A stretch of 63,437 nt of DNA, filler included, from Sanchytrium tribonematis (taxonomy: Eukaryota): the NCBI GenBank assembly GCA_018985235.1. It is 13 parts of 13 records of this genome, joined end to end, with 100 filler letters (N's around TTAATTAATTAA, not from the genome) between each part and the next. Parts side by side here need not be neighbours in the genome. Positions count along the whole stretch, not along the records: positions 31,220 to 34,564 come from JADGIG010000877.1; 12 more parts are not named here. One strand, 5' to 3'. This document shows positions 7,841 to 62,738 of this stretch, in pieces (the stretch's first letter is position 1; each line of letters opens with the position of its first letter). Both the position numbers and the translations under genes were made by a program. The notes beneath the pieces were generated by a model, which did no database searches, was not told the origin of the DNA, and worked only from the letters and a program-made list of their open reading frames with translations.

Positions 7841-9038
7841 TCATTTATTAAATCCATCCAACTCAAAAATACGCTGTGTTTCTAAGAATGATTTTACAAT
7901 CTCATCTGTCACTTGACTTCGCTTCTCTTGAAAATCACCAACAATCTGCTGCAATACTTTAATACACATTCCTTTTAATTCGCCGCTAGTAATTTCTCCT
8001 TTTCGATATCCATTTTCAATATTAGCCAATTCTACATCATCTTCTAAAAAGAATGTTAAATATTGATAAGCAGTATCTACATCTGGATTCCCACCATATT
8101 TTCGATGATCTTCTAATGTATCACGGCCACCACTAAACCCATGCTTGTTGATTTTCTTTTTAATTTGATTTGGCGTATCTGTCAAGAAAATGGCTGAATT
8201 TTCATCAGATGAACTCATTTTAGAATGTGGACCTTGTAAAGCAGGAAAGAATTTAGCAAGTAATAAAATGGGTTTAGGTGCTTTTAATTTATGGCACACA
8301 TCTCTTGTTAATCTAAATGAATTAAAATTACCTAAAATAGGGATCTTGATCAATGGCACATGGGATTAAACAGTGGTAATTACGCGTACCAAACATATGT
8401 GGGAATGAACTACTGAGTGCGGGTGCTGCTTGGATGCTCACAAAACTCAATTTGCCAATAGAATCAGAATCATTGAATCCAAAACATCCCTTGGATTGGT
8501 TGGTTGTGATGGATTTATTGATTCTGCAAATGTTTTTATAAAAGGATGGATTCATGTACTCTGAATTGATGAATATAAATGTCTTTTTCAAATCAAATCC
8601 ACATGCAATAATATCTTTTATATTTTCATATGCGAATTTGGTAGTTTGATCTAAATCTAGATTTTTAAAGTAAAATTTCTCATCATCTGTTAGTTGGATG
8701 ACAATTGGGACATTTAAAGTCTTCTGGAGCCATTGGCAGATGATAAATGGGACTAGATGGCCTACATGCATGGAATCTGATGAGGGACCACGACCAGTGT
8801 ATAAATAAAATGGTTTATCTATAATTTGATGTAGATCACGGTGACTAAAGAATACTTGACGGGTGATTAAATGGTGTAATTTGCCGCATTTTGATGTTAA
8901 TTTGGATAATAAATCATCTGTGATGGGTTGAGTGCCAAATTGTTGGATTAATTTGTTGTAATCTATTGCTTGATGTTGTCCATCGACTATGGCACCTTGC
9001 ACTTGCCATGGATCAATTTTTTGTTCATTTTGTGACAT
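7841..9038 (-). CDS. WRS1: Cytoplasmic tryptophanyl-tRNA synthetase; 2 exons (9038-8332, 8312-7841), 392 aa
   Basis: [37 protein letters not shown] joined to LTRD, KMSSSD, FSGG; one 19-nt intron restores the frame. Confidence 0.95.
8313..8331 (-). other. 19-nt spliceosomal intron GTAATTTTAATTCATTTAG
   Basis: Removal joins DQDPYFR to LTRDV, reproducing the conserved TrpRS motif with no residue gained or lost. Confidence 0.92.
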
Positions 9039-13176: not shown

Positions 13177-13829
13177 TTAAGACATGACTAAAGCGAGTAA
13201 AATCCACTGCATACCTCGCATCGTTATGGCATGATTGGATGATTTTTGATCTTCGACATTTAATTGAGGATCCCAAGCAATACTTTGACCATTTCCCAAA
13301 TTAAATGCGTAAAATGACTCACTCACTTGCACATTATCACTGTCACCATCATCACCAGATCCACTGACCATTGCGGATGCATCTACTGTGACTGAACTGG
13401 CAGATACGGACTTCAGATTGCCATCCACGACGACATTGGAGGACCATGAGAATGATCCACTGTCTGTATTGACTGTATTGGTGCCTTGCGTGACTGATTT
13501 CGACTTGACTGATTGTAATAAATACAAATCGCCACTCTTTTGAAATGGGAAATTGTCAATATAGATCGAATATTTAAATCTAAATGAAATACAAGTACCT
13601 GAGAGGTGTCAATGGTACAGATTGACCATTTTCAGATGCTGTAGCTTGTTGGTCACTTGTGGTTGCCTTGATAGTGATATTGCAGCTATTAATGACCAAG
13701 GAAGACGTAAATGAATAAATTGTGATTCCATCTACTACGACTGAAGATTGAGAAATAGCAGACCATTTACCAGTCTGACCCGTCAATTTAATAAAGTTGG
13801 TAGCCGTATTGATATTTTCATTAGAACTG
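13177..13829 (-). CDS. S/T/V-rich surface protein with C-terminal hydrophobic anchor; 3' fragment, 2 exons (intron 13580-13598)
   Basis: Two ORFs join in frame as PLR/FKYSIYIDNFPF after removal of a 19-nt intron; WDPQLNV followed by a hydrophobic tail. Confidence 0.7.
13580..13598 (-). other. 19-nt spliceosomal intron GTACTTGTATTTCATTTAG
   Basis: Joins ORFs 13580-13786 and 13177-13527 in frame; matches the consensus. Confidence 0.82.
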
Positions 13830-17398: not shown

Positions 17399-20300
17399 TA
17401 CAAAGATAGCACGGGGAATAAGTGGCTAGATGATCATTTATTCACATTGTTAAATAGAGCCTATCTCGGATTACGAAGAACCGGCAAAGACCAGTCTATT
17501 ATCTTGAATGGCCAGGATGTTCAAGGGAAACAATTGGTCTTAGAACACTCCCTAGATTATTTATGTCAATTAGGCGCACCTCTACAAGCAACGAAGAGAG
17601 ATGAGAAGGTGCACTCTAAATTACAAGCATCATTGACCATTTTCAAAGCATTTACAACCAAATCTGCTCCAAATAGTGGATTACTCTTCAATGTGAAGTA
17701 TAATGAGAAGGGACGTGTTGTAGGTGGTCAAATCACTGATATTCTACTCCCATTGATCCAATTCGAGCAACGATCTGTCACCATTCTCCACGCATTGATT
17801 CAAGGTGCAGATCATTCCCTCAAGAAACAATTCAAGTTGAATACCTCATTTTTCAACTCCAATCACATCAGTAGTGATAAATACGTGTTCCATGATGTTC
17901 ATGAAGCATTCCAAACCCTCCAATTTAGTGATAAAACCATTTCCCACATTTATCAACTATTGAGTGCCATTTTACATTTGAGCACCATTGAGTTTGAGCA
18001 ACATCAGAGTGAAGATAGAGCTTCTATCAAGTTGGCAGATATTGAATATGTGTCCTCATTACTCGGAATCTCCCCTAAATCCCTAGAAACCGCATTAACA
18101 GTCAAAACTACTAAAATTGGAAATGAATATTGCAGTGTCTTTATGAGTGTGAAAGATGCCAGTGATCACAAATATCATTTAATGCAATCCATCTACCACG
18201 CATTACTGGTATGGCTATTAGATTGTCTCAACAAGAAAATGAAATCCTCAAAAGCCGTCAATTCCATTTTATTGGTGGATCCCATTCAACCCATCAAGAA
18301 ACAAAATAGCCAATTGACTGACTTGTTAAGTAATGAATTCAATGAAGTGCTCCACTCTGGATACATTGCATCTCTCTTTAAAGACCAATTAGACCATTAT
18401 CAACAAGATGGTTTAATTTTTAAGAGAATTGAATTCAAGAATAATGACAATCAAATCCAATTACTCCTCAATGAAGACCATGGTGTCAATGTCCTATTGC
18501 AACAACAACAAGAGAATGCATCCAATTCTGTATTAAGTAGCATCCAAGCAGAACATGCAGATAATCCCGCATTTATCGAATGTTCTCACTCCCAATTCAC
18601 TATGAATCACTATTTTGGAAATACGACGTACTCCCAATTCCAATTAGATGCCCACATGTCCAATGACACTACTCAATTATTCATGGGCAGTGCAGAATTC
18701 ACAGCATCTAATAATCCATTATTACTCAAATTATTCGGATCTAAAAACATCCAATCTATCCAATCTCATCATTTCCTTACTTCTAATATCATGACTAGCT
18801 ACCAATCTCATTTATTAAGCATCATGAGTCAATTAAAGCAAGCTCAGCCATGGTTCATCATTTGCATTGATTTAAACATGCAAAACACCAAAGTAGATTC
18901 CAAATTACTCAAATCTCAAGTCAAACAGTATTTATTAAGTGAATTGGCATTACAACGATTAGAAATGCATGATTATGCGCATTATATGAGTTATAGAAAT
19001 ATGATTGACAGATATCGAGATGTATTGCGTAGTTTCAACATTGATGAGTCATTAACACCCAAACAACAGATAAGTCAGTTGATGGAGTGTATGACCGAGT
19101 ACACACGCGAGAATAGACCTTTAAAAGACACAGATAGTGCCATTTCCAATAAATCCAAAAGACGTGGGAGTGAATTAAGCATGCAGAGTGTAGGCGTGGC
19201 TGGTGGGTCCTTTTTAGGCAAGAATACATTATTTATGACCCATCAATGCTACCAGCAAATAGAATTCATGTCTCGTAAATTACAGCACACCATCAAGACA
19301 AAAGGCGATTTAAATGAATCACAACTTTATGCAGCTAGAATTGACAATATTAGCACGTATAGTGACACCTATAGTGAAATGGATGATTCTATTTATGATT
19401 CTGAAGCATCTTCTTTAAATGAGACACTTCAAAGTAGTATTCCTGAGAGCGGAGTGTTTAGAAATGCAGATGGGGATATTATTGGCAAAGATTATGAATT
19501 AATGGAAGAATCTACATCTAAAATGCGTCGTAAATGGGTGTGTTGCACGTGGTGTTTGACTTGGTGGATTCCCACATTCTGTATTAAATGGTGTGGGATG
19601 AATAGACCAGATGTCCAAATGGCATGGCGTGAAAAAGTGGCATTGTGTTTGATTATTATGGGCATGTGCGCATTAATGCTGTTTTTTATTGCTGGTCTAG
19701 GTCCATTAATCTGTCCAAAACAAGAAATCTTGTCTCTTTATGAATTACAATTCAAAAATACAGAAGATGAGCCATTTGCGAGCGCATATGGTAAAATATT
19801 GAGTATGAATGATTTGATTAAAATATCACCTGCGCAACACAATTTAGACCAATTAAGAGAATCGTATGGTGGATTAGATGTCACACCTGGTTTTCCTAGA
19901 ACCCCTGCCACATATTGCACATTTGTGAGTGATAAATCATTGAAATTGGATATAGATGCCAAAGATATCTCAAAAGTGAATGGAACTGCTATTTTTAGTA
20001 GCCATGCGTCTCTTTATCAAGCCACATCCACAGATGGTGATCCACGATCAGTAGGAGAACAACGAATGGATGCTTTTTTTAATAACAAGAAATATCTCAA
20101 ATTCATGTTGGGATGGGATCCAGATATCGTCAAGGGATTAGTCTCTGATAAATTTCTACCGCGTCAAATGGTGATTGTGAATGATCAAGTGTATGATTTG
20201 ACAGTTTATTTATCTAAAATTGGAGATGCAAAATACAGATTTTTAGGAGATGGAATCACAGAATTCTTGAATAACAATGCTGGCAATGATATTTCATCCA

Positions 20301-20761
20301 ATTCTAATTTCATGTCACAATGGAATTCTAGATCTGATTTACGAGATTGTTTTAATAATTTATTCATGGTGGGCGTATTGGATAAACGTAGATCTTTTAG
20401 ATGTCAATTCTCTAATTATTTGTTATTGGCTGCGTCTATCGTGCTTGTGAGCATTATTGGATTTAAATTCTTGGCTGCATTGCAATTAGGCAGCAGAAGA
20501 GAACCCGAAGAACATGATAAATTTGTGATTTTACAAATGCCATGTTACACAGAAGGAGAAGAGAATTTAAAAAGGACGATTGAATCCCTAGCTGCCTTGA
20601 GATATGACGATAAACGTAAATTGTTATTTCTCATGTGTGATGGTATGATTGTGGGTAGCGGCAATGACAGACCCACCCCGCGAATTGTTTTGGATATTTT
20701 AGGTGTAGATCCCAATTTGGATCCAGAACCCCTTTCTTTTCAAAGTATTGGTGAAGGCATG
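17399..20761 (+). CDS. Chitin synthase with myosin motor-like domain (class V/VII); internal fragment truncated at both ends
   Basis: Degenerate myosin head (DQSIILNG, LLSAILHL), LTWWIP, AWREKVALC, cytochrome b5-like VYDLT, PCYTEGE, YDDKRKLL, CDGMIVGSGNDRPTPRIVLDILG. Confidence 0.95.
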
Positions 20762-21169: not shown

Positions 21170-22369
21170 ATGTCAAATCCATATCTTGCTCATAGAGAGA
21201 AGAAAGACAAAGAGAAATTGAAAGAAGATGTTTTTGATGCTGACCTAATCCATAGAAAAAGATCCAGAATTAAATTTAGAATGAATGAGCCCGGAAAGTA
21301 CGAAAAAAAAGCGAAGATAGAAAAGTTAGAAAAGAGAATTGAGCAACGCAAAGAAGCAGCCTTATTGAAGAAAAATGAAGAGCGAGAGAAAGAAAAGCAG
21401 CACTGGTCTCGGGTTCCAATACCAGATGTGGAGTGGTGGGATTCTTGTTTAGTTTACCCCCAATCGCAATACAGTGAGGTTGATCCGAATTTTAAATTTG
21501 ATATTCCTGTTCCACAACTAGCTACAATAGAAGAACCTAAGGGCACAATACCAGTAACTCATTTGATTCTTCATCCTTTACCACCACGAGAGGAGGGAAA
21601 ACCTTTTAAAATTCCTACGTATTTGACTAAACCCGAAATCAAACGGATGAGACGTTTGAGAAGACTGAATGAGCAACAAGAGAAGAGAGATAAGATACTA
21701 CTGGGTGAAATTGTTGAAGAGCCAAAGTTAACTCTTAAAAACTTTTCGAAAGTCTTACAATCAGAAGTGCTTGTGGATCCAACCAAGGCAGAGCAAATGG
21801 TTCTAGACCAAATTGAAAACCGAAAACTAAAGCATGAAGAGCACAACGAGTCTTTCCGTTTGACAAAAGAGGAAAAAAGAGAGAAAAACATCAAAAAGTG
21901 GCACAAAGACCGTAAGAAAAACCTTCAGAGAGTTGTTTACAAAATTTATAAAATGAATCATAAAATTAAGAATAAAATTGATATGAATGCAACCCAAATG
22001 CAAATGACTGGTGTCTTGATTTGGTATAAACAGGACGATGATCAATTTGCATTGTTAGTTGCAGAGGGAGGAAGAATAGCAACAAATAGAATTCAAAATT
22101 TATTAAATAGACGAATTGACTGGAAAAACATGGAGCAAAATAATGATGAAATGGATATTGATTCAAACTCAGATGATATGATCGACGATGATAAGGAAAC
22201 GGAACATACTGAATTGTTATGGAAAGGAAACGTTGATAATTCCATTTTTGAGAATAAAATTGGACAATTTCGCGTCAAGCTATGCAACAAGGAAAGCATT
22301 ATTCCTTATGTTGATCATATTGGTGAAGAAATGAAATCTTACTGGAATATGACTCACAATAAATCATAA
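21170..22369 (+). CDS. PRP3: U4/U6 snRNP protein Prp3
   Basis: NPYL, IPDVEWWD, YLTKPEIKRMRR, DPTKAE, HEEHNE..RLTKEEKREK, MNATQMQMTG, VAEGG, RRIDW, LLWKG. Confidence 0.9.
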   Translation: MSNPYLAHREKKDKEKLKEDVFDADLIHRKRSRIKFRMNEPGKYEKKAKIEKLEKRIEQRKEAALLKKNEEREKEKQHWSRVPIPDVEWWDSCLVYPQSQYSEVDPNFKFDIPVPQLATIEEPKGTIPVTHLILHPLPPREEGKPFKIPTYLTKPEIKRMRRLRRLNEQQEKRDKILLGEIVEEPKLTLKNFSKVLQSEVLVDPTKAEQMVLDQIENRKLKHEEHNESFRLTKEEKREKNIKKWHKDRKKNLQRVVYKIYKMNHKIKNKIDMNATQMQMTGVLIWYKQDDDQFALLVAEGGRIATNRIQNLLNRRIDWKNMEQNNDEMDIDSNSDDMIDDDKETEHTELLWKGNVDNSIFENKIGQFRVKLCNKESIIPYVDHIGEEMKSYWNMTHNKS

Positions 22370-24323: not shown

Positions 24324-24600
24324 AGTTCCCACATCCATCCAAATTGCAGTTTCATCTGCAAATACAATCTGATCACTTGAATAAATAGATAATTTGCTTT
24401 TAACTTGTAGAATATGCTTTGCTACTGATTCAATCAAGTATTGATCATCTTTTTTAACTAATTGTGTTGCTGCTCTAGGTACGAGATTATTTCTTTTTAA
24501 CACTCCCCCCCGGGGGGAGTTGAGCTGCCAAAGACTTTATTCGCACTATTGCTGCTATTTCAACTACAATTGGTGATTTCTTTCATTCAACTTTTTATTT
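24324..24600 (-). mobile_element. Degenerate pogo/Tc1-mariner transposase remnant
   Basis: LKRNNLVPRAATQ (end of CENP-B HTH region) and QIVFADETAIWMD (first Asp of DDE); the upstream frame is broken. Confidence 0.65.
24502..24520. repeat. GC-rich palindrome ACTCCCCCC-C-GGGGGGAGT
   Basis: Perfect 9-bp inverted repeat with a 1-nt centre in AT-rich context. Confidence 0.9.
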
Positions 24601-24910
24601 TGGAAATGAAACCACAAATAAGGTTAAAACTGTATCCGTAGAGCCGCATTATTGGAAGGCAAACTCACTTCAAGTGGAATGGACCTATTTCAAAGTATTT
24701 AAACTGTTCGTCAATTCAATTGTAATCATATATGTGTGTATCAAAACACCTTTTAAAAACTTGATGAGAGTAAAAGTCAATGGCTCAAAAATGACTTGGA
24801 ATAGTTAATTAACACTCTAATAAATTCACTTGCTTAGAATCCAATCAGATGCGCAGCACATGGCTCAAGAATTCTAAAACTTTCTAGGCCTAAAATAAAA
24901 TTATTTCAAA

Positions 24911-27287
24911 ATGTTCCCCGACTTGAAATCCATTTTATTCATTTATTTAACAATGATCACGCGTCTATATAGTATATCTGCAGATTGCCCAGCAGTCATG
25001 AGCTTCTTACAGGGTTTAAATCTACATATAACTGATCCAGTTTTATATCAAAGTATCCCTGCAGATTGCTGCACGACACACATCAACAATGCACTAGGAT
25101 TCTTAAGCATCTCATGTATCAGTACAAGTCCATTTCATGTCAATTCAATTTACCTTGAAAATGTCAAAATTAATGGAACCATTAAAAGTCAATTTATAGT
25201 TCCCTCTCTCGGATATCTATTGATAAAGTACACGACTCTGAATACAACAATACCTAGTGATTTACCAAATACCCTAATAGGTCTCTATTTAGATTATAGT
25301 AACATTTATGGATCTATTCCGGATACGCTTCCATCTCAATTACAATTATTTTCTGCTGTTTATAATCAATTAACTGGACTACCATCTTCATTCCCAGTAC
25401 TCATTCAAGGTATTTATTTATCAGGTAATAAATTAACTCGACTACCAGCCGTTTTTCCACCAGATACCACCAGTGTTTCTATGGATAATAATCAAATTTA
25501 TGACCAATTATCCCCTTCTATGCCTGGAAAAATGAAACATTTTCACGTATTTAACAATTATATTTACGGAACTATTCCCAGCACCTTGCCAGATACAATT
25601 ACAGAATTATGGATTCAAATGAATAATATTCAAGGAGCTATTCCTGCCACACTTCCAAGCCAACTATCAGATTTTAGAGCATCTCATAATAGACTGGATA
25701 CTTTCTATTCGGTGTCCCAAATAATGCCAACTATGGATTTCAGTTACAACTTATTTACTAAAATGATGCCAATGCCATTAAATTTTGCCACATTAGATGT
25801 TTCACACAATTTAATCTATCAAAATTTAACCCAAATTGACATTAAAAATTATGTTTATTTATATATAAATGACAATATGATTTACGGAACAATTCCTAAT
25901 TTTCCAAATAATCAAAATCATTACCGCTTTGGAAATAATCAATTACAGGGATCACTTCCCGATCTACCAGATCAAATGCGTGAACTGGATGTATCTGGTA
26001 ATAATCTAACAGGTCCAATTCCGATTTTGCCTTCTTATTTAAACGTTTTGAATTTGAACAATAATTCATTCACTGGCAATTTGCCAAAGATTCCTGCTGC
26101 TCTCGATAGTTTTAAAGCTAGTCATAATTTACTAAGTGGTAATTTCTCTAATTTAAATACCAGCATCAGATTGAGTGAATTGGATTTATCTTGGAATAAA
26201 TTTAATGGAAGTTTGGTGGGAATCAAATTTCAATTATATACCTTGGTGGATTTGTCTCATAATCAATTATCTGGTGATATTGATTTAGGATCTTCTACAA
26301 TTAATGATTTAAGATTGAGTTTCAACCAATTTGATTATTTTCCAAAATCATTGCCACAAGCACTAAAAACACTTAATTTGGACAATAATAAGATGCAAGG
26401 CAACATTACATATGATTTACCATCAACCTTGAAAACAGTCGACTTATCAAACAATAATTTGACTGGAAATGTTCCAAAATGGCCAACTCTTGCAAATCGC
26501 ATTTATTATAATATTTCCAACAATTCATTCACTGGTAGCATCCCCCAATCACTACAATATATGGTGACATTGGATATATCTCATAATTACTTGAGTGGGT
26601 GCTTTAATTATCAATTTAATGGCTCCAATTTCTATTTTAATGATAATTATTTGGGTGGGAAAATGAGCTTTTTGGCTCCAAAACAAGTATTTCTTCAAAA
26701 TAATAATATTTTGGATATTGATGTTACTGATTCAACAGCTATGAATCAAAATTGTAGTTTGGCAAATAATCCAATGGCACCTGGAGTGTTTGGTAAAACT
26801 TTCAAAAATCAATGTAATTTGAATGGGATATTTGCAGCTAATGTAAGCTTCTGCAAAATTTCATTAATTGATGAAATCAGAGATGCTATGGGATCACGTT
26901 TATCAAATAATACGATTGTGGCTCCATTTGATTCTAATGCTACAAGTTCCAATCCGAGTCAAACAGAAGCAAATGAAGTGATTATTCGTACTTTTCTATC
27001 ATGTAGGTCGTCTACGCTCTTTCGGAACCATGACAAATGCCCTAACATCCTTCAACAGCCCATATAATAGCAATAATGTTGTTAACAGCGGCGCTACTTC
27101 AACTGAAACTGTATCTCTTAAGCCGTATCACTGGAAATTGCAGCCTCTTCAAGTAGAATGGTCGTATGTAAAATTTGTCAAATTATGCCTCAATGCAATC
27201 ATCATGACAGTAGTATGCATCAAAACACCATTTAGATATCTTTTTAGAAAGCACGTCACTAGTTCCAAAATGACATGGATCAGTTAA
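24911..27287 (+). CDS. Extracellular leucine-rich repeat receptor-like protein; 2 exons (intron 26988-27006), about 785 aa
   Basis: Cys cap (ADCP..DCC..C), many LxxLDLSxNxLxGxIP plant-type LRRs; exon 2 adds a hydrophobic helix and basic tail. Alternative start 24953. Confidence 0.85.
26988..27006 (+). other. 19-nt spliceosomal intron GTACTTTTCTATCATGTAG
   Basis: Joins the LRR ORF in frame to ORF 27030-27287 (VIIR/RLRSFGTMTN); matches the consensus. Confidence 0.8.
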
Positions 27288-31219: not shown

Positions 31220-31605
31220 TAAATGGATTTTTTGGCAAGGAGGGGATATCCGATTTTAAAGACACATACAATGAGAAGCAATTACAAGAACAAAGAAAAG
31301 CATTAGAGACTAAAAACAAAAGTCTTGGGGAGAAAAAGAAAAAAGCATTGAAAACAATGCGTACTGAAAGATGGGAAAATATAAAAAAAGCGGTAAAAGA
31401 CTTTAAAAACTCATTTAAATTACCCACATATGACCCAGTAAGACATGATTTTGATCCATATACTGACGAAATACGAGATGGTGGGTATAAACCCTCTTGG
31501 ACTGGAAGAGCCAGTAAAGCTTTTTCAGGATTCGTTGATTATTTCAAAAGACCCAAGGCTGAATCACTTACGCACCTTGATCCAACAAACCGGGCAATGG
31601 TATAA
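31220..31605 (+). CDS. Hypothetical Lys-rich protein, 3' fragment
   Basis: Purine-rich open frame ending in TAAATA. Confidence 0.45.
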
Positions 31606-31612
31606 ATACAAT

Positions 31613-31789
31613 TCATTTATCTTTTTTACTATAATTTTCATTTTTAGGTTTCTTAAAGGGTGTATGCTTTCTTGTTTTTATCTTTTTACAACAATAAACA
31701 TTATTGGCATATACCCGTGACTGTTTCGTACTTGTAAATGCATCAAATCCCATTAATTTGATCAAATCTGCATTTGAAATCTGTTTCAT
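31613..31789 (-). CDS. Minimal U4/U6.U5 27K (SNRNP27/DUF1777)-like protein, 58 aa; absent from the ORF track
   Basis: MKQISNADLIKLMGFDAFTSTKQSRVYANNVYCCKKIKTRKHTPFKKPKNENYSKKDK; matches the 27K motif M.KLMGF..F.STK.K.V..N......K.RK. Confidence 0.68.
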   Translation of the reverse strand: MKQISNADLIKLMGFDAFTSTKQSRVYANNVYCCKKIKTRKHTPFKKPKNENYSKKDK

Positions 31790-31832
31790 GGAGTATTTGC
31801 AATAAAATGTAAATCATTTATTGTGAATCATG

Positions 31833-33227
31833 CTATACATCATGCTGTGCATCTCTAGGCCATTTGTATTCATTATCGTCAAATGTATATTCACTCGTAT
31901 TCATTGAAATATTGGCATTTTTAAACATAATCACAAATATCGTAATATCATCTCTATATCTTCTAGAATGATCACTGGGAATACTCAATAACAATGCTAA
32001 TTTCTGTGCATCATTGTGTTCTTTTATATTCAATGGTTCAACAAATGCTTGTCGCATTAAATAAGTAGACGGATCTTTATCCATTTCACTCAATTTTCCA
32101 TTTTTATACGCATGAATCCATTTCCCAACTATATTCACGACTTGTTGGTTATTTAATCTCTCCCATAATCCATCTGTTGCAATGACCATAAATTGATCTT
32201 TCTCAGAAATATCATGTGATAAAATCTCAGGCTCAGCAGTCACATATGGGGGTGTTTGATAATGATTTGGAATAAATCGATACATGACAGATCTATCTTT
32301 CTTTAAATGAAAGAAATCAATGATTTTAGTGAGAAATGTCTTGTTGTACTTGTAATTATTGTCTCCAAAAGATCTAGATGGCATTAATCCACCTAGTACT
32401 CTACCACGACTGGCTACATTGGGTTCATTCGGATGTTCTTTTTGTAGTCTATTTAATTCATGTGGGGCATCTGGTGTTTGATCATGTGACATTTCTTTAA
32501 ATTGCCATTTCTCAGTATCACTAGTTTCACTAGACTGACCAGTAGACTGTCCACTAGACTGTCCAATAATGGCTCTAGCATCTCCAATATTAGCTACATG
32601 TACTTGATTATCCGTAAAATATGCAGAAATAGAACATGCGCCACTTAATGCAACAGTAGCTGCTTGCATGAATTGCTTCACAATAGGTGTAGAATCATTT
32701 GGATGTGCATTTTTAGGCAATTCATTGTATAAATCAATAGGCGCATTGGTAATATCCCCATCTAATTCCAAATAAGCATGTTTTAATGCATTTGGGATAT
32801 TTTCAGTATTTAAAGTGGCATTTCTAATATAACTACCCAATACTTGAGATGCTACAGAAGCACATTCATATCCAGCATGTCCATCAAATACACTAAATAT
32901 CAAATCATTTCCATTTTTGTATATTTTATGATTATCTTCAATGGGGTCATTGCTGGCACATTTATTAATTGAAATCCAATCTAATTGAGGATGTTGAATG
33001 GCATATGATTTGGCATATTTAATTAATTCTGATTCAGATTGTTGTACGGTTAAAAAATCACTTCTAGATCGATCTTTCATTGGATGAATGACTGAATCGG
33101 GTTTAACAGTGATAAATGGTCGTTGTTGGTAATATTGACTAGAGATACCTACTAGTCCAATAGCCATACTGCGTGAATAATGATTTAACCTGAAATAAAT
33201 GAAATGACGACGTGTGAAGAGGGACAT
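31833..33227 (-). CDS. PP2C-family mitochondrial pyruvate dehydrogenase phosphatase (Ptc5-like)
   Basis: SNDPIED, VFDGHAG, VANIGDARA, GRVLGGLMPSRSFGD, TPPYVTAEP, ATDGLW, RRYRDDIT; Arg-rich N-terminal presequence. Confidence 0.92.
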   Translation of the reverse strand: MSLFTRRHFIYFRLNHYSRSMAIGLVGISSQYYQQRPFITVKPDSVIHPMKDRSRSDFLTVQQSESELIKYAKSYAIQHPQLDWISINKCASNDPIEDNHKIYKNGNDLIFSVFDGHAGYECASVASQVLGSYIRNATLNTENIPNALKHAYLELDGDITNAPIDLYNELPKNAHPNDSTPIVKQFMQAATVALSGACSISAYFTDNQVHVANIGDARAIIGQSSGQSTGQSSETSDTEKWQFKEMSHDQTPDAPHELNRLQKEHPNEPNVASRGRVLGGLMPSRSFGDNNYKYNKTFLTKIIDFFHLKKDRSVMYRFIPNHYQTPPYVTAEPEILSHDISEKDQFMVIATDGLWERLNNQQVVNIVGKWIHAYKNGKLSEMDKDPSTYLMRQAFVEPLNIKEHNDAQKLALLLSIPSDHSRRYRDDITIFVIMFKNANISMNTSEYTFDDNEYKWPRDAQHDV

Positions 33228-33255
33228 GTTTGAAAAATGATTTGCAATTTATTTA

Positions 33256-34212
33256 TTAAACAATTTTAATAGACTGTATCCATCGATGATTTATTGCATC
33301 TGTGGGATAAATTCTCTCATCTTTATCTGAATGAGTCATTTGTCGTATAAAATCCAAAAATGTATCCATTTTGGGATATTCTTTGATATAATCTGCAATA
33401 GAGTATTTAGGATCACTTAAATACTTTAAATTATCGATCATAACTTTATAAATAGCCAGTCTTGGATATTGTGTATATTTAATCCACTTTAATACGATTT
33501 CTAGAATTGTGACCCCCAATTCATACATATCCACCAATGCGGGATAATAAAAGGCATTTAGATTGGGATTCCATTGATGTCGTTTAATTTTAATGAGCAT
33601 TTCTGGGGGTAAATAGTCCAATGTGCCAACATATCCCTGTTTTTCTCTCAAACTATTAGTAATGAATTCCAAATCAATGAGAATGAACTCGGATGGGATG
33701 CCCTCTTCTGAATATGCTGCAATCATGATATTATCTGGTTTAACATCTAAATGTGCATATTGGTTTCTATTTAAATAATACAAAGCACTCAATATTTGAA
33801 TGGCTAATTTCTCAATAAATTGGAATAGTTGATGAATATTTAATTGAATAAATGATTTGGATCCTAAATAATCATAAATATTTTCTTTATAATATGGCAT
33901 TTGGAAAGTATAACAAAATGAATCTTCTTGATACACAATTTGACCATTTGAATCAAAAACAGTGGGATATTCATAAGTATTAGTTGCTTCAGTGCCTCGG
34001 ATAATATTTTGATGCTTTAATATGTTGTTTGTTGTGTAAAAGATTTCATTTTTTGCACGATTAATTTTATCTGGTCTATTACGTGGAACACAGGTTATTT
34101 TACGGACTCTGTTTGAATCACGCTCTAATATGACAACTTTACTTTTAGATTCATTGATTGTGATTGCTAGAGGGGTCCATTCCGCATACAACAACAAACT
34201 AAAAAAATGCAT
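33256..34212 (-). CDS. Divergent Ser/Thr protein kinase with short N-terminal signal peptide
   Basis: HLDVKPDNI, LIDLE (DFG variant), VGTLDYLPPE, DMYELG, ERI...AINHRW; N-terminus MHFFSLLLYA; CCCC upstream. Confidence 0.8.
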   Translation of the reverse strand: MHFFSLLLYAEWTPLAITINESKSKVVILERDSNRVRKITCVPRNRPDKINRAKNEIFYTTNNILKHQNIIRGTEATNTYEYPTVFDSNGQIVYQEDSFCYTFQMPYYKENIYDYLGSKSFIQLNIHQLFQFIEKLAIQILSALYYLNRNQYAHLDVKPDNIMIAAYSEEGIPSEFILIDLEFITNSLREKQGYVGTLDYLPPEMLIKIKRHQWNPNLNAFYYPALVDMYELGVTILEIVLKWIKYTQYPRLAIYKVMIDNLKYLSDPKYSIADYIKEYPKMDTFLDFIRQMTHSDKDERIYPTDAINHRWIQSIKIV

Positions 34213-34564
34213 CAAGGGGATTCTCCTTCATTTATTGAATGGAACAGCATGCACGAGAGGATTGGACAATTGATTGAATCCAAGGGTGTCGTAGAGCGTT
34301 TGCAGGATTCAATCTTTTACCAAGATTTGCATCAGTCATTTTTAAATCAACTCTTATGGTTGAATTTTCTCCACGTTATCTTTATTGTAATATTTAAGAT
34401 TATGGTACCCAAATATAAATAGTAAAACATTTTATTTATTCTTCTTTACGTCGTGGTGAATCCAATAATGAATATTCATTAATTTCCATTTCTGTCAATA
34501 TTTTCTGCATTGGAAATACTTTCTTGACATTATATTCTTCCATTACCAATTCATACAATATCTG

Positions 34565-38545: not shown

Positions 38546-38754
38546 CAGAAATTAAAAATGGGTTATAAAAATTTCAAAATTTTACTCCTTTTGAATCACT
38601 TGATTTTATTTGATTGGCGTCAAAGGCAATCATTGACAATTTCATAAACATTAGTAACCTTTAAATAAAATTGGAAGTATTTCAAGTATATATTTTAATT
38701 CTGTGCTTTTCGACAGCATCCACACCAAAGGCAAATCTCCTTTCTCCTTGCTAC

Positions 38755-39219
38755 ATGTACATTTACGTACTACAATTGAATCATTCCAAATATTACATTG
38801 GCAAATCTACCAATCCACTCAATCGCATCACTACCCACATAGAAGACACCAGAAATCTATTTATCAAACGTCATAAACCCATAAATATTATTTCATGCTT
38901 CCAATCCACATCCGATTTTGATGAAGACAATACTGTCAAAGAATACATGCAGAAATATGGTATTGAAAATGTTCGTGGCGGTAGTTATTCAAACTATAAA
39001 TTATCCAGTGCACAAATTGAATTCTTGAGTCGAGAAATGCAATCTAGTACGAATGCCTGTTTTAAATGTGGTCAAAATGGTCATTTTGCAAACAAATGTA
39101 GAGTGAAATTGATTAAACGTAAGCAAATGAAACCAAATACATGTTATCGATGTGGCAGATCAACTCATTTTGCAAAAAATTGTTTTGCGAGTAGACATTT
39201 GAATGGCTCTTTAATTTAA
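38755..39219 (+). CDS. GIY-YIG-superfamily nuclease with two CCHC zinc knuckles
   Basis: YIYVLQL...KYYIGKS...R...H; EDNTVKEYMQKYGIENVRGGSY; CFKCGQNGHFANKC; CYRCGRSTHFAKNC. Confidence 0.85.
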   Translation: MYIYVLQLNHSKYYIGKSTNPLNRITTHIEDTRNLFIKRHKPINIISCFQSTSDFDEDNTVKEYMQKYGIENVRGGSYSNYKLSSAQIEFLSREMQSSTNACFKCGQNGHFANKCRVKLIKRKQMKPNTCYRCGRSTHFAKNCFASRHLNGSLI

Positions 39220-45568: not shown

Positions 45569-46435
45569 TTATTGCGAATATGCAGATGAAAGAGCAGTAG
45601 GAGCATCATTTTGTTGTAAATATATAATATAATCGACTAAACGCGAGACTTCACTTGATTCTTCATCAGTTATTGGCACCATTGCGTACAAAAAATTCGA
45701 ATTTGGACCAATATGTAAAATTTGATGATGCGCTACCAAGACACCTAATGCAATCACAAATGCATTATGAGGAAAATAATTTAAAATGTTCCACAAATTA
45801 AAATTATATAAACCAGTGACATTTTCAAGTACTATTTTCGCTTTATCTTTTCTGATTTTTCGTTGATGCTCTGATTCATTCTTCTCTCTGATGGATTCCG
45901 AGTAATATTTTGAGATTTGAAGGAAATACATTTCAGGAGTTGGATAAGAGTAGGCAAAAGGATCTGATAAAAATACAATAGATTCTAAATCACTAAATGA
46001 TTTCTTTGAGATTTTAGGTGAAATCTTTCGTGCCAAATTATACCAAAATGCAGGATTTAATTCTTCACTAGTTCTATCTTCCAACTTAAAAGCGACGTGA
46101 ATTGTTTTCAAAGCCAATAATCGGATATATTGAAGTCTAGGCTTCGACGTGCTTACTTGTCTGATTCCAGTGACACTTTCATGAGCTTCCATTACAATAA
46201 TTTTCCAACGTCCTTCGATCTTGACAGGGTCTATTTCTAATCGATCAAATCGTTTCAACGCTTTAAAGATGGCTTTTGAGCTTAATTTATCATCAATCAA
46301 CTGAAAAAGATTTAACATTACCTTGTTCTTAGTGGAAGAGTATTCTGACTGGGTGTGTGGCACTATTTCTCTTGATTTGTACTCTTTTATCAACTCCAAT
46401 GTCGTCAATCCAAATATCAGTAGCGTCAACAACAT
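45569..46435 (-). CDS. Signal-peptide-bearing cyclin-fold protein 2
   Basis: MLLTLLIFG; AIFKALKRFDRL, LLALKTIHVAFKLED, YPTPEMYF, YFPHNAFVIALGVLVA. Confidence 0.68.
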   Translation of the reverse strand: MLLTLLIFGLTTLELIKEYKSREIVPHTQSEYSSTKNKVMLNLFQLIDDKLSSKAIFKALKRFDRLEIDPVKIEGRWKIIVMEAHESVTGIRQVSTSKPRLQYIRLLALKTIHVAFKLEDRTSEELNPAFWYNLARKISPKISKKSFSDLESIVFLSDPFAYSYPTPEMYFLQISKYYSESIREKNESEHQRKIRKDKAKIVLENVTGLYNFNLWNILNYFPHNAFVIALGVLVAHHQILHIGPNSNFLYAMVPITDEESSEVSRLVDYIIYLQQNDAPTALSSAYSQ

Positions 46436-46593
46436 TTGCTTTGATCCCTGTTGCACATCTTGCTACAAATTGCAGCACATTATTTGTTGTACAAAGGGAT
46501 TTGTGTCATTTTGTATCAAACAAACTATTGCACAAGTATTTGTTGCGATTCACCAATTAGAATTCAATATATCAATGTTTATTATTTGTATAT

Positions 46594-47379
46594 CTATTTT
46601 CTGTTCAGTGGGAACTTTAAACGATCTGGTTGAAATGATTTCCCTTTCAAATACATGATATATCGAATAACTCGATGTGCAGAAGTACAATCATTACTAG
46701 TAAACTTAAATTTTTGAATCATTGATTCCCAAATCGGAAATTCTAAATTTTCATCTTCTGAGTTTCTAATTTCTCGATATGCAATTAATAATGACAACGC
46801 AATGACAGATGCTTTATCGGAATAATACAACGATAAGTCATATGCCTGATTTTCAAATAATTTAATGGCTCCATCTCTATTTTCAATGACTTTTTCACTA
46901 TTACTTTGTGATAAAACAGACAACTCCAAATAGTAATTTGCGAATATTTTCATAAAAAATAAAGGACTGGCTTGAATTAAACTTGATGAAGTAATATTGA
47001 TAATCTCAAATGACATTTTTTTGAATGCCTCTAGACTAATCGCATTTTTAGAATTACTTACTGCAAATTGATGCCATTCCGGCAAAGATGCTTCATCATT
47101 CAAATTATCACATTTAGAAGCCAAATACATACTCACCATAGCAATCATTGGCGAATCTCCGTATTTATCATCAAGCTTATTAAAAATACATTCATCGAAA
47201 GTCTTGACCCAAATAAAATATGAATTTACATTAAATTTTAAAGACTCTTTTTGACTGTATTTATCATAAAGATCTTTGACATAGTTCATGATTGTATTTC
47301 TAGATTCAAGTTGTTCAATAGATATATTTGAAAATATTTCACTGGATCCAAATAAAAGTAAAGAAAAGAGATGCAACAT
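46594..47379 (-). CDS. Signal-peptide-bearing cyclin-fold protein 3
   Basis: MLHLFSLLLFG; RNTIMNYV, MIAMVSMYLASKCD, ASPLFFM, YYSDKASVIALSLLIA. Confidence 0.7.
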   Translation of the reverse strand: MLHLFSLLLFGSSEIFSNISIEQLESRNTIMNYVKDLYDKYSQKESLKFNVNSYFIWVKTFDECIFNKLDDKYGDSPMIAMVSMYLASKCDNLNDEASLPEWHQFAVSNSKNAISLEAFKKMSFEIINITSSSLIQASPLFFMKIFANYYLELSVLSQSNSEKVIENRDGAIKLFENQAYDLSLYYSDKASVIALSLLIAYREIRNSEDENLEFPIWESMIQKFKFTSNDCTSAHRVIRYIMYLKGKSFQPDRLKFPLNRK

Positions 47380-47480
47380 CAAATAACTCCCTGTAGTACA
47401 TGCAATTTATTTTGAATGACAAAGGAGGTTGTGTCAAACACAAAGCAAACACAAATAATTCAATTAAAATTTTCCCAATA

Positions 47481-48257
47481 TCATGTAAAATGGACTTGAT
47501 TCAGATTCAAATATATTCCTTCTAAACTAAATAAATATCTCACAACTCGCTCCACATTTATTCTATCCATTACAGATAAATTCAACTCATTTTCCAATAA
47601 TTCCCACTTTGCATCATTCAATTTCTGTATAATTCGAGATGCAATGAGTGCAGATAATACAATAACAGATGCTTTATCAGAATAATATAATAGTATTTGA
47701 GAAAGATGCTTATTTAATAAATAATTGACTCTATTGGAATAAAATTTGATTGTTTCATTGGGCAAATTGAACTGTATTAAGCAATATTTGAGATAATTTT
47801 GAGGACTCTCATGATTATTTGATGAGATGGAGATGGAATTGTAATAACGAATCGCTGTCATCAACTGCTGCGTGCTGATATGTGGAATGTATACGGTTGC
47901 CGCTCTTTTTATTATTGAGATGGAATAACACTTGATTGCATTATGAATATAGATGATAGCCAATACTTTGATAAAATGTGGATCCAATTTGCTAATATTC
48001 TTTGATTTCAATTTATCATAAATTAACCAATTAAAGATATTTTCATTTCCCAAATTGATTGTCAAGTTTTCAAATCTCTTTAATGCAACAAATAGGGCAT
48101 CGTGAGTTGCTTTGAGTATGTGATTGACTGTCTCAAATACTGACAACATGATATGATGTAATTCCATCTCGCTAAAATGAATATCATTGCTGGATAATTG
48201 TATTCTATTGTTAAATGGCACGAGTGATGTAAATAGTGATAAAATGAGTAGCAACAT
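47481..48257 (-). CDS. Signal-peptide-bearing cyclin-fold protein 4
   Basis: MLLLILSLFTS; ALFVALKRFE, VLAIIYIHNAIKC, ESPQNYL, YYSDKASVIVLSALIA. Confidence 0.65.
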   Translation of the reverse strand: MLLLILSLFTSLVPFNNRIQLSSNDIHFSEMELHHIMLSVFETVNHILKATHDALFVALKRFENLTINLGNENIFNWLIYDKLKSKNISKLDPHFIKVLAIIYIHNAIKCYSISIIKRAATVYIPHISTQQLMTAIRYYNSISISSNNHESPQNYLKYCLIQFNLPNETIKFYSNRVNYLLNKHLSQILLYYSDKASVIVLSALIASRIIQKLNDAKWELLENELNLSVMDRINVERVVRYLFSLEGIYLNLNQVHFT

Positions 48258-48445
48258 CCTCAAATATCCGTAGTTTAGAGGAGAAGATTCACTCGATTGT
48301 GTCAATTGATCACTTAAAAATGCAATCCAATGTTCACCGATTCCCAAATTGATCATTTCAGACAGTAATATACTTGCTCACTGAATTGATTGGTGCAAGA
48401 ATCTATGTGATTGATTCAAATATTCAGATTTCCCAATCTTGCAAA

Positions 48446-50244: not shown

Positions 50245-53200
50245 TTAAAAATTTAGATTCTTTTTTAGAGTCGCTTCTTTCTTAATCGTACCATCTTTTT
50301 TAATAGTAGCTGATTTCACAGATTTCGCACCATCACTTTGGATACTCTTTCTCTTTTCATTTTCTACTATTTTCCTGCTTAATGTTTTAGTGCCTCTTCT
50401 TAAATCCTTTCCTACAAATATAATAGCTGCTAGCACACACAAACAAGTAATTCCAATGGTAATCACTGACAATGTCTCTGCAAATGACCCTGTTTTGGTA
50501 TTATTTGTAAAAAACAAAATCCCACAACTTAGCGTCAAAACACTACAAATCTGACAAAATACATCTGCCAATGTGTGATCACGCTCCACATATGGCTTAA
50601 AATGAATTAAGAATCCAATATATGCAAACACGGTTAATTGGATAATCATGGCTTGCGAAACAATTGAAGAATAAAACAAATTCTGCACCAATAATATAAT
50701 CAATTTCATATATAATTGAGCAGCCACGATAAACTGGGTAGTTGGTTTGAATATCGTGTTATCTGTAATCAACAATCTCGTCAAATTGGATTTCACAGAT
50801 GTTGCAAAACCCCCTTTAAATTTATTTTGATAAAGCCCAATGTGCATTGAAGTGAAATATAATGGAATTCCAACCACATAAATAATCGTAGCCGTTAAAA
50901 AGAATGGGAAATTGTCCTTGTGTGCCCCTGTATAACACTCATATGCTGGTGATTTCAATAAAACCAGTGTTTTATCTTGCCCTGCTCCAAAATCCACGCA
51001 ATTGAAATATCCCAATGCCCAACTGGTTAAACTCACAAATATGAATTGTAACAGTAAATTAAATCCCCTAATTACCAAGAATACATTGGATTTATAAGCT
51101 TCTTTTGTGATGGGTGGTAATTGGATTTTAGTATTTCTCTTTAAAATCAAGTTTTTCAAGTATAAATATGGATAATTTAGAGGGGGTGCAAATACAAATG
51201 CCATAATCAACATAAATACAAGCAGAATAGGTGGCACTATGAACATAAATTCACCTTTTGTAAAGAAATTAATATTTGGATTTAAGCATTCTGGTTTGGC
51301 CAATTCCAAATTAAATGAAAAGAAACTCACTAAACTAAACATTTTCTGTACATTATCACTCCATTTCAAGATAATAGACTTGAAAATATATAAAATCTAC
51401 ATGAAATGAAATTACTTGGAAATAATTGACTGCAATTGAAATGGCTGCAAAATATCTACCAATTTTGATGAATATAAAGATAATCAACACAAATGCGACT
51501 AGAATTCCCACTATAGTCAATATCAACACCGTATTATCCGTTTCAGGGCATTTTAAACAAATAAATCCATCTCTGTAATATTTATCAGAACACACCCCAC
51601 ACCGATCTCCTAATTGTTTGCCATATCCCGCATTACACATGGCAGATCCATTACAAGCTTCTTCTGGATTACAGGCTGCAAACCAATAAGCCCCATTTGC
51701 ATATATTTCATAATATCCCTTTAATCCAGTGGGTAATGAACTACCATCTGCAGAACAAATACCCCCACTTGGACAATCTGCACAAATTGGTACTGTTGCA
51801 TTAGATTCTTTAACACCAAATACATTGGGTACTTTCCCCGTGTTACATGTCAAGCTGGCAACTACTGCAAAACTAGCACTGCTACTTGGATTTCTATAAT
51901 CTGTCAATGCCATGGCTACTTTTAATGGGAAATCACCCACTTGCAACAATTTATTATTCTTATTATCATATTTCCATGTAATATTCGTATTCGCAAATAA
52001 AACAGATTCTGTCACATTACTCGTAAATACCCCAATATTCACTATTTGTAAATTATTTAGTGATTGAACATGATCTGCATTGGTACTACCCACGACTGCA
52101 TCACTAGATACTCTAAATATCCCATCTATAGAATAACTTGGATTGATAAAATGGGATTCCGTGTAATATGATTTAAAATCTACTGAATAGGGCGCATATT
52201 GATTGGTAATCGATGGACAATCCACTAGACTATATTTCATAATATCACGAATCACCATTGAAAATAAATAATTGCCATTTTCATCCGTATAAATATTAGG
52301 TGTCAAATTTTGACCACTTAATGTGGGTGTTCTTTTAATATCAATGATAATGACACCTGGTATAATGGAATTAATTGTGAAATAAATGACTAGATTGGTG
52401 GCTGTTTTATCTTTATCCAAATCCAAAATAATCAAATCTGACAAAGTGCCATTTAAATTCAATGGTAATACATCATTTTTAGCATCTATTTGCCATGTAT
52501 CAGTCGCATTTAACCCATTTTGATCTAATAATAGCTCATAATGTTGTTTATTGTTCTTCAATTCTGCATTCATGTATGATTTAATACGATAAATGGGTTT
52601 AATGACAGATTGCCATGATGAAACATAGTTTCCAATTTGAATTTGAATGCGAGTCACATCCCATTCTGATTTAATCACTATTTTATGATTATTCCAACTT
52701 AAGATAGTCCCATTCTGCACTATCCCAATATCCAAATCACTAAATGCACTAAATTTCATATAAATAGATCTTTGACGATGACACCCTGATAAATCACCAA
52801 AATGATCCCCAATAATCTCAATTTGATTGAATTTATAGTAAGCATACTGTACAACAGGATCCTGAATCACTTTAAATTGATATTGACTGGTAAATGAACA
52901 ATCTTCACTAATCACAGTTGTTTTTAATTGATAATCCCCTGAATTACCATAATATGAACTAGGCACATTAAAACTGAATAAATTAATGGCATTTGTACTT
53001 GGACATTGATCTACAGACAATGTGGATGTGATTTGATAATTTAATCCTTTAAATTCATTCAATTTACGCATAAAATCAATATTTGTTAATTGAAGCGTAT
53101 TTTGAGTAAATTGGACATCTAATTCGTCAAATGTCAATTGTGACAAGGTTGGATCCACACTCGTCTTGGTTCCTGCAGTAAATACACTCTTCATTTGTAT

Positions 53201-60457: not shown

Positions 60458-62738
60458 ATGGAAAATCTTGAAGTCCTTGTTCAAAATGTACTGGGCAAGA
60501 TTCAGATAGAAGATGAATTGCAGTTGTGCACTAAGCTATTAAATTCAACTTTTAAATCCAATATAACTTTGTCAAGTGTGGACCATTTAATCAGAAAAAA
60601 ACTTGCAAAATCAAATTATGCTTTAGAATACATTAATGCTTTTAATTTATTAAGCCAACATAATGTTTCGAAATTAGCAGAAATTTTGCAATTTTTGTAC
60701 ATACTATCTGGACAGCAAAATATTTCAAAACCGGTTATTCCCTCAATCGACTTTATGGAACAAGGATTTATGGCTCAAATTCCTAAAAGTACGCAAATAG
60801 AGATGGATGTGGATGAAAAAGATCTTCCGGTAGTTTCTGATCAAGAAAAAGCTTTAGTGAAAGACCTGTTTTTTGTTTTACAAGGAATTAGTGGAAATTT
60901 AATTGATTTATCTGAAGATAAATTAAAATGCAAAATTAGTTTCAAGGACAATCGTCAACCATGTTTAGATCTTCTTATGATTCTAGCAGAAGTGGCACTG
61001 AATTTTCGGAAATTTATCAGCACCTCCACAAACAGTTTCCTAATTCGCTCGATACAAATTGGAGTTGAAAATGAACTACGCAAAATGCAGGAATTGTCAA
61101 TAAGCGCAGAGGGAGTTTCTCTTAGTGTACTGCACGTTTATGCTCATGTATTTCCTTATATTTATCGCTACCATTTTATCTATAATATATTTAAAAATAT
61201 AGATATATTTAATATAACAATTCAATCGAGTGACCAGATACTGTCATATTTGACCGCAGGCTATCACAGTGGGGATGAGTTGAAAGTGGAAATTTGTGAG
61301 TCTTTTCTTGCTTTAATTTCGAAGCCTTATGTAGAACAAATTTTTAATTGGATGGTGTACGGAGAACTCAACGACCCATTCAATGAGTTTTTTATTGTTA
61401 AAAATGATGAAAATTTAGACTTTCCGAATGAACATTTTTGGACAAAAGCCTTTTACTCAAGATCTTCTACAATACCTTTTCTGAATGATATAGAACAACG
61501 AAAATGTATTTTGGAAGTTGGGAAATCTTCACGACTGCTTTCATTATCAGATAACAGCTCACTATGGGTGATCGAAAATTCCAAACTATTTTCGAAAAAT
61601 GATCTAAACTTAAGGGACCGCGAGACAACACTAAGATTTATCAAGAAACTAAAATTGCATATTGATAATCGGCTCATGGTTGTATTCAAAGATAAATTTG
61701 GCCTCAGGGAATGTCTCAAATTTATGAGAGATGTGTTTTTTACCAGAAGGGGCGATTTGTTGCTCGAGATTTTTTATCAATTAAAAGACTATCTGGAAAT
61801 GCCTGCAAAGACGATTATTTACGAAGTTTCCGCTGTTGTTGATATTTGCTTTCGACAAAATTATACCAATTCTCCTTTATTTAATATCAAACTTTCCACT
61901 TTAAATTTTAAAGAAAACAGCCTCTTGTGGTCATGCTTGTGCTTCAGACCCGAGTTCCCATTTCCGATGAATAATTTTTTTGATTCAAAAATAATTAAAA
62001 GATACCAAGGGATGTTTGGCTTTTTCAATTCTCTCAAGTATGTTTACTTTAGATTAAACTATTTGTGGAAAAATTTAAAATCAATTTCTATACCAATAAG
62101 AACTAATGTTCCACAATTTAAGATGTTTTTAAGAAAAACCGCTGTTTGGAATCAACAATATGTGTCTATTATTTCTCAAATATTATTTTATAGTTTGTAT
62201 GAAGTAGTAGAAAACGATCTTAAGTCCTTAGACAACTATGCAATGAAAGAGGGCATTGGATTTCAAGAACTTATTGAAATGCATAACAATGTTGTGAAAA
62301 ATCTCAGAAGTTCGACAAGTTTAGAATCCGATCCGCAAAATCCAAATTTTAGCCTAATTTGGGAACTGCTTCAGGAGCTGCATAAATACACTCTTCAAGA
62401 AGTAATCATTGTTTATTTAGAGTGAAATTTTTAGCAATTTGGAACGACTTATTTTGTTTAAACAAAAGCTAGAATTACAATATGCGGGGCAAGTTCCATG
62501 GGATGATACAGGTATTTATGCAGAAGTCGAGACTATTGAAAAAAAATGTCAAATATTTGAATCTAGTAACATATTTTTAAAATCAAGAGCAAACTCATTT
62601 GTGTCAAATATTGCGAATTCTAAAGAGCCTAGCTTTCGCAAACTCGCGCAGAGAATTAATTTTAATGCCTATTATCAATTTGACGTAGCTAATAGCGCCA
62701 CAGCCACCAGTCTGTTCGCTTCACCATTGAGAATGTAA
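60458..62738 (+). CDS. Gamma-tubulin complex component (GCP3/Spc98-like); 2 exons (intron 62402-62420), 753 aa
   Basis: LVKDLFFVLQGISG, WMVYGELNDPFNEFFI, FW...IPFL, ILEVGKS, RGDL, and exon 2 ending LAQRINFNAYY. Confidence 0.85.
62402..62420 (+). other. 19-nt spliceosomal intron GTAATCATTGTTTATTTAG
   Basis: Phase-0 removal attaches the conserved GCP C-terminal L..R.NFN.YY block in frame. Confidence 0.88.

Follow-up and report, generated by a model that had tools for sequence, protein, structure and literature searches.

A probable 58-aa SNRNP27-like gene that lacks the RS domain and the M141 loop, in a Sanchytrium tribonematis window with candidate 19-nt introns

The window, as we call the whole stretch of 63,437 nucleotides analyzed here, joins 13 segments of the Sanchytrium tribonematis genome (eleven of about 3.35 kb, one of 21.9 kb, and a last one of 3.3 kb) through N-TTAATTAATTAA-N linkers. 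Since it is a concatenation, the order of segments across linkers is not gene order. The GC content is 30-37%, and three of the five window proteins that we looked up are present in EukProt. The window holds a myosin-head chitin synthase fusion (17399-20761, plus strand), which is cut by segment edges and which we take to be a fungal marker. It also encodes PRP3 of the U4/U6 snRNP, which fits both of its Pfam domains into some 400 aa (21173-22366, plus strand) and is a further compact spliceosome protein suited to comparison, and a small protein with a GIY-YIG nuclease domain and CCHC zinc knuckles (38665-39216, plus strand). Three ORFs of 270-298 codons, arranged in tandem at 45572-48377 on the minus strand, match no Pfam family and perhaps form a lineage-specific family. 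Rfam gave no match on the whole window at E-values up to 0.5, and hence no snRNA, and we identified no known partner of 27K in the window.

The segment at positions 31220-34564 contains the element studied here, a 58-aa ORF whose coordinates are given with those of the other features in Table 1. Its translation is identical to the one quoted in an earlier sequence-only reading of this DNA and ends in HTPFKKPKNENYSKKDK. The ORF occupies a 227-nt gap between two genes. Upstream lies a phosphatase with a match to Pfam PF00481 (E = 7.9e-41) and a match in EukProt, for which we claim no functional link; on the other side, the stop codon of the convergent ORF is 7 nt away. An ATG ORF of at least 58 aa was present in 26 of 5000 shuffles of this gap, which speaks against chance. 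Gaps of at least 227 nt account for 9 of the 38 in the window (counted between ORFs of at least 100 aa, with a median of 80 nt), so that the filling of the gap is by itself weak evidence. The codon score of the ORF is 0.148 per codon, to be compared with a median of 0.164 in 155 in-frame gene windows and with a 95th percentile of 0.146 in 715 off-frame open windows. A competing ORF that overlaps it on the plus strand (31445-31720) was discarded, having no Pfam match and a codon score of -0.03.

Table 1. Positions in the window of the SNRNP27-like ORF, its surroundings, and the 19-nt introns.
Feature	Positions	Strand	Remarks
SNRNP27-like ORF	31613..31789	-	ATG to TGA, 58 aa
Conserved core, residues 10-41	31667..31762	-	KLMGF..F.STK and QxRVYANNxYC; corresponds to human 27K about 104-136
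Lys-rich tail, residues 42-58	31616..31666	-	replaces the conserved M141 loop
Spacer from the SNRNP27-like ORF to the upstream PP2C stop codon	31790..31832	-	43 nt
PP2C-family phosphatase, upstream neighbour	31833..33227	-	
Convergent neighbour, unassigned, 3' end	31222..31605	+	cut by segment edge; codon score 0.18, coding-like
FRQYMD string	31454..31471	-	in the frame of the ORF, 195 nt past Lys41; probably chance
19-nt intron GTAATTTTAATTCATTTAG, tryptophanyl-tRNA synthetase	8313..8331	-	confirmed by homology
19-nt intron candidate GTACTTGTATTTCATTTAG	13580..13598	-	frame join, gain of 66 codons
19-nt intron candidate GTACTTTTCTATCATGTAG, LRR gene	26988..27006	+	frame join, gain of 66 codons
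19-nt intron candidate GTAATTTCATTTCATGTAG	51397..51415	-	joins frames of 1600 and 383 codons
19-nt intron candidate GTAATCATTGTTTATTTAG, gamma-tubulin complex gene	62402..62420	+	gain of 98 codons

The exact 58-aa sequence is absent from a collection of 15 billion proteins, in which three of the four other window proteins queried are present, and was not found in the Atlas either. Its absence from the collection may reflect a small gene that was missed, or one without a product. At the nucleotide level, the stretch occurs in a single sequencing run (X1, as DNA contigs), which is not fully independent since it is possibly the source material. One 513-nt contig of X1 covers the ORF at both 80% and 90% likeness, with the frame intact, no indels, and a single synonymous change at Glu51 (GAA>GAG), which is very weak evidence of selection; for comparison, four of the five changes in the phosphatase gene are synonymous. 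We hold the ORF to be probably a real gene, and presume that it is expressed. The neighbours also vary in X1. The convergent ORF has a second haplotype at 31280-31390, in which all five changes are non-synonymous; it is a fast-evolving gene, in contrast to the phosphatase gene next door. Near the 3' end of a kinase in the same segment, the region 33263-33334 has 8 changes and a 1-base insertion, and inside the kinase there are 12 changes in 155 nt at 33810-33964; a 54-nt skip lies at 34350-34405. From these dense clusters of variants, the kinase would seem to exist as diverged haplotypes or paralogues.

The assignment of the ORF to the SNRNP27 family, proposed in the sequence-only reading, is borne out by Pfam. 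The match to Pfam PF08648 scores 29.8 bits for a gathering cut-off of 23.1 (E = 6.3e-7), and aligns residues 6-41 of the ORF with positions 3-38 of the 56 in the model. Among the 177,635 sequences of the PDB, the only match is human 27K (6qw6_X), at E = 0.27 for the single-sequence query and at E = 2.5e-4 for a two-sequence profile combining the ORF with P0005, a metagenomic relative described below; the profile gave no other match in the PDB at E-values up to 10. A short motif of the MGF type is also found in other proteins, namely SNU23/ZMAT2 and WDR70. Both identities were rejected, since Pfam gives SNRNP27 alone and there is no zinc-finger or WD40 domain. The Atlas ranked SNRNP27 first (0.87) and a WDR70 cluster second (0.84), both of which are just leads, and the AlphaFold model of the protein is uninformative (pLDDT 65, pTM 0.24). 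The 58-aa gene is homologous to SNRNP27 and is probably its orthologue.

The protein is colinear with human SNRNP27 and C. elegans SNRP-27 (PF08648, DUF1777; 6QW6 chain X) over human residues 101-136 approximately, a stretch that includes KLMGF..F.STK and the next strand. The N-terminal half of the domain, from KLMGF..F.STK to the basic patch, thus has its parts in the same order as in human 27K. Arg25, Tyr32, and Lys41 align with K119, Y127, and K136, and further on Phe45 and Lys46 align with Y140 and M141. The differences lie at both ends: the protein has 58 aa where the human one has 155, it has no RS domain, and the last 20 residues are replaced. Both losses had been claimed before, and both hold. 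There is a single RS/SR dipeptide, an in-frame stop lies just upstream, and the closeness of the upstream gene leaves no room for an exon encoding an RS domain. As for the C-terminal motif YRQYMN/GGFNRPL, the Pfam match extends no further than position 38 of the 56 in the model, a Lys stands at M141, and the terminal 20 or so conserved residues that include M141 are missing from the ORF; neither GGFN nor GF.RPL occurs in the six frames of the whole window. We file the protein as a variant and not as a canonical member of the family, because it lacks two defining features, the RS domain and the M141 loop.

A HMMER search of 1.84 billion representative proteins gave two matches. One of them, P0004, is a repeat protein without the motif and was considered spurious. 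The other, P0005, is a 54-aa ENA metagenome protein with 48% identity (E = 2.7e-5) and a Pfam SNRNP27 match of its own, at 27.4 bits, above the cut-off of 23.1. It has the same design as the 58-aa ORF, with a short N-terminus, no RS domain, no YRQYMN/GGFNRPL, and the signature QxRVYANNxYC, at which human 27K differs; at M141 it has a Leu, whereas the ORF has a Lys. Ungapped identity between the two is 1/9 at the start, 19/32 over residues 10-41, and 2/10 over residues 42-51, and the two tails, although both Lys/Arg-rich, compare at a BLOSUM score of -3, both identities being Lys. Given this difference between core and tail, the core looks selected and the tail unconstrained. P0005 is our best argument for a short form that is maintained and for a tail that varies freely instead of being re-adapted, and it speaks against the earlier description of the C-terminus as remodelled into a new functional tail. 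One should note that P0005 is a single gene call on one 2322-nt ENA contig, known from its protein sequence alone, and that its tail may be intron read-through. Word-based searches for homologues returned nothing with the ORF as single query and P0005 alone with the profile, and a weak search through 46 longer candidates gave none that scored. In viral and prokaryote collections, none of the 150 and 75 pattern matches, respectively, was confirmed, and locus L001 was rejected as a chance off-frame match within a 745-aa bacterial gene. An Atlas search with P0005 was uninformative (best score 0.79).

The window had also been said to contain 19-nt introns starting with GTA(A/C)T, and we find five candidates. 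The one in the tryptophanyl-tRNA synthetase gene is confirmed by homology: on one and the same homologous chain, the alignment of the left half runs up to residue 224 and that of the right half begins with residue 226, an Arg being encoded by the split codon. Taking as U2-type an intron for which GT-AG removal restores a conserved protein, homology places one of the five in this class, and the other four are identified by frame joining alone, a method that would overlook introns close to gene ends. In the gamma-tubulin complex gene, the Pfam GCP_C match stops at position 235 of 309 in the model, at the donor, but the second exon searched by itself gave no GCP_C match. Among the 43 GT-AG candidates of 15-30 nt that join frames, the modal length is 19 nt (8 cases), which is also the length of 6 among the 10 candidates that start with GTAnT. 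The sixth of these, a GTAAT 19-mer at +12661, was rejected, as it is antisense to a 209-aa ORF and the 3' signature is missing. When candidates were conditioned on their 3' end, using a motif that was derived from the same five introns, 5 of 136 gained at least 66 codons, and all five are 19 nt long and start with GTA(A/C)T. A 19-nt GT..AAG inside the SNRNP27-like ORF (31689) was also discarded, since it is A-rich and its splicing yields an immediate stop. Two similar short frames flank the LRR gene (24524-24805 and 26982-27284, plus strand; VSVEPHYWK / VSLKPYHWK ... CIKTPF) and appear to be a local duplication, the second of which joins the LRR frame via its 19-nt intron.

The five introns are uniform in more than length. 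All have an A at -6, presumably the branch point, and end in TAG. Their donors have +3A and +5T in all cases, +4A in three, +4C in two, and -2A in four, with neither +4U nor +5G in any. The introns of Stentor coeruleus are reported to be 15-16 nt long, with GUAAU as the commonest start (PMC9505925), and their branch A, the 10th of 15 nt, is also at -6 (PMC9505925). Stentor differs in being a ciliate, with thousands of introns that are shorter than the 19 nt found here (PMC9505925); in the part of its protein table covered here, 27K does not appear. Earlier exceptions below 30 nt are described from ciliates, microsporidia, and dicyemids (PMC13644364). In the literature that we searched, with incomplete coverage, we found no account of a fungus outside the microsporidia with uniform 19-nt introns, and in PMC8371127 the word "intron" occurs in the references only. 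Uniform introns with this Stentor-like architecture may be of greater interest than the 27K gene. At 19 nt, in a fungus bearing a chitin synthase, they come near the lower limit of known intron length.

The function of 27K is understood through its final 20 residues, and through M141 in particular. They are described as the most conserved part of the protein, and certain changes of M141 cause lethality in worms (PMC6140464). At the U4/U6 quasi-pseudoknot, M141 is reported to pack against SNU66 and PRP8 (PMC11098459); it probably has a stabilising effect on U6 m6A43 at +4 (PMC11732430). The protein is placed by the ACAGA box (PMC11143319). It binds PRP8-En and SNU66, and has to leave PRP8-En before BRR2 docking. 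Human pre-B models cover residues 126-151 only (PMC11208138), and upstream of these a single cross-link, with 2 spectra, joins K119 to SmD2 (PMC11208138). The half that precedes the last residues is conserved, but cryo-EM models leave most of it out, and the literature that we examined assigns it no role. When the human residues are mapped on the 58-aa protein and the pre-B models taken into account, the fungal protein is seen to keep this mostly unmodelled half and one modelled strand, and to have lost the M141 loop. That a natural protein keeps this half alone, in two diverged lineages, suggests that it does something by itself. We found no description of a 27K without RS domain and loop in an incomplete coverage of the literature, in which the alignment of 158 orthologues in PMC10581693 may include truncations; the passages of PMC10158995 that we covered never mention 27K.

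These observations are likely explained by a working but stripped subunit of the tri-snRNP, which would have kept its docking and lost the chaperoning of U6 at +4 by M141. The gene would retain the first two-thirds of the SNRNP27 domain, without RS arm and M141 loop, and the protein would remain able to dock in the vicinity of the U4 Sm core, SNU66, and PRP8. The loss of the loop would abolish the chaperoning of U6 ACAGAGA pairing at position +4 of the 5' splice site. The half that is kept would act as a docking or timing element, as suggested by the cross-link of K119 (Arg25 here) to SmD2, by the presence of residues 126-136 in the pre-B models, and by the departure of 27K from PRP8-En before BRR2 docks. 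As for the loop, it may have become dispensable because few introns, of fixed length and nearly invariant, leave no competing 5' sites. Under such relaxation there would be little 5' choice to police, and the loop would have decayed while the docking half was retained.

The donors give a mixed picture in this respect. In worms carrying M141T, +4A and +3G sites are reported as sensitive, whereas -2A, +3A, +4U, and +5G are protective (bioRxiv 10.1101/2023.09.16.558044), and a reanalysis gives //GURAG as the sensitive motif (bioRxiv 10.1101/2023.09.16.558044). The sequence-only reading had 27K acting on +4A sites that lack +5G. The sensitivity of +4A and the protection by +5G agree with it; the motif //GURAG, and the protection that -2A and +3A also give, do not. 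For a stripped 27K we count +3A in five of five donors and -2A in four of five, both protective against worm M141T, and against it +4A in three of five, together with no +4U and no +5G in any of the five, features that should need M141. The donors thus combine protective +3A and mostly -2A with +4A and a lack of +5G. In Saccharomycotina, 27K loss or deviation at M141 is reported to go with +4U (PMC10581693). These yeasts likewise show erosion of M141 in intron-poor fungi, by substitution or loss (PMC10581693), but they switch from +4A to +4U (PMC10581693), whereas here +4A/C occurs with +5T and the entire loop is gone.

Other explanations have to be weighed. A canonical full-length 27K may lie elsewhere in the genome, in which case the short copy would be a diverged, secondary paralogue, possibly with another role. 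The window comprises 13 joined segments of the genome, and human 27K has other residues where the two short proteins share QxRVYANNxYC; yet X1 shows a single copy at nucleotide identities of 80% and above (a search blind to an old paralogue), the weak search among 46 candidates brought up no longer relative, and the genome is very compact, with its median gap of 80 nt. We regard this duplicate as rather unlikely. It is a little less probable still that the remainder of the gene is a functionless relic, en route to complete loss of the budding-yeast type. This is suggested by the nature of the lost stretch, in which conservation is highest and whose function is both essential and proven, by the loss of 27K in several intron-poor yeasts (PMC10581693), and by the absence of the protein from the collection of 15 billion. 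A decaying gene is at odds with the open frame, the similar start and length, and the core identity of 19/32 to a relative that is 48% identical overall, and also with a coding-like codon score and an intact frame in X1.

Along the lines of the sequence-only reading, the remodelling may instead be adaptive: a new basic tail would have taken the place of the M141 loop and be adjusted to GTA(A/C)T donors, together perhaps with a modified U6 box. The donors, all with +5T and none with +5G, fit this view, as do Phe45 at the position of human Y140 and the Lys/Arg-rich composition of both tails, and C. merolae provides a known example of a changed U6 box (PMC10581693, PMC10158995). On the other side, the tails share two positions in ten, both Lys, a residue favoured by an AT-rich genome, and the yeast study reports an invariant U6 box throughout its 240 species (PMC10581693). 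With five introns in one genome, the claimed co-evolution with 19-nt introns cannot be demonstrated, and the lack of +4U in all five runs partly against the published +4U trend. Such a tuned tail seems to us improbable. Finally, it is very improbable that the core is spliced to the downstream FRQYMD as a hidden second exon, or that FRQYMD is the displaced old C-terminus, with an equivalent of M141 kept: of the 85,969 positions in the six frames of the window, a single one matches YRQYMN better than this string, and the proximity of the string has a rough chance of 0.002-0.007 (computed post hoc, the string having already been seen), but it is antisense within the coding-like convergent ORF, no AG precedes it, three stops (TGA, TAA, TGA) lie between, GGFNRPL does not follow, the SNRNP27-like ORF has no GTA(A/C)T donor, and the GT/GC-AG joins that reach it span 174-219 nt, do not show the GTA(A/C)T start or the A(-6)...TAG end, and would bring in 7 or more extra residues.

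A wider reading of the stripped, docking-only 27K, which we offer tentatively as a possibility, is that a fungal lineage converged on Stentor-like 19-nt introns, dropped the checkpoint formed by 27K M141 and U6 at +4, and kept a docking peptide. Genes such as this one, below 60 aa, are missed by surveys of presence and absence of spliceosome components. If the reading is true, the gene would be a natural separation-of-function allele, in which +4A donors are handled without M141. It would also break the rule that ties M141 loss to +4U, and would point to a changed U6 box or to a fixing of the 5' splice site that is based on intron length.
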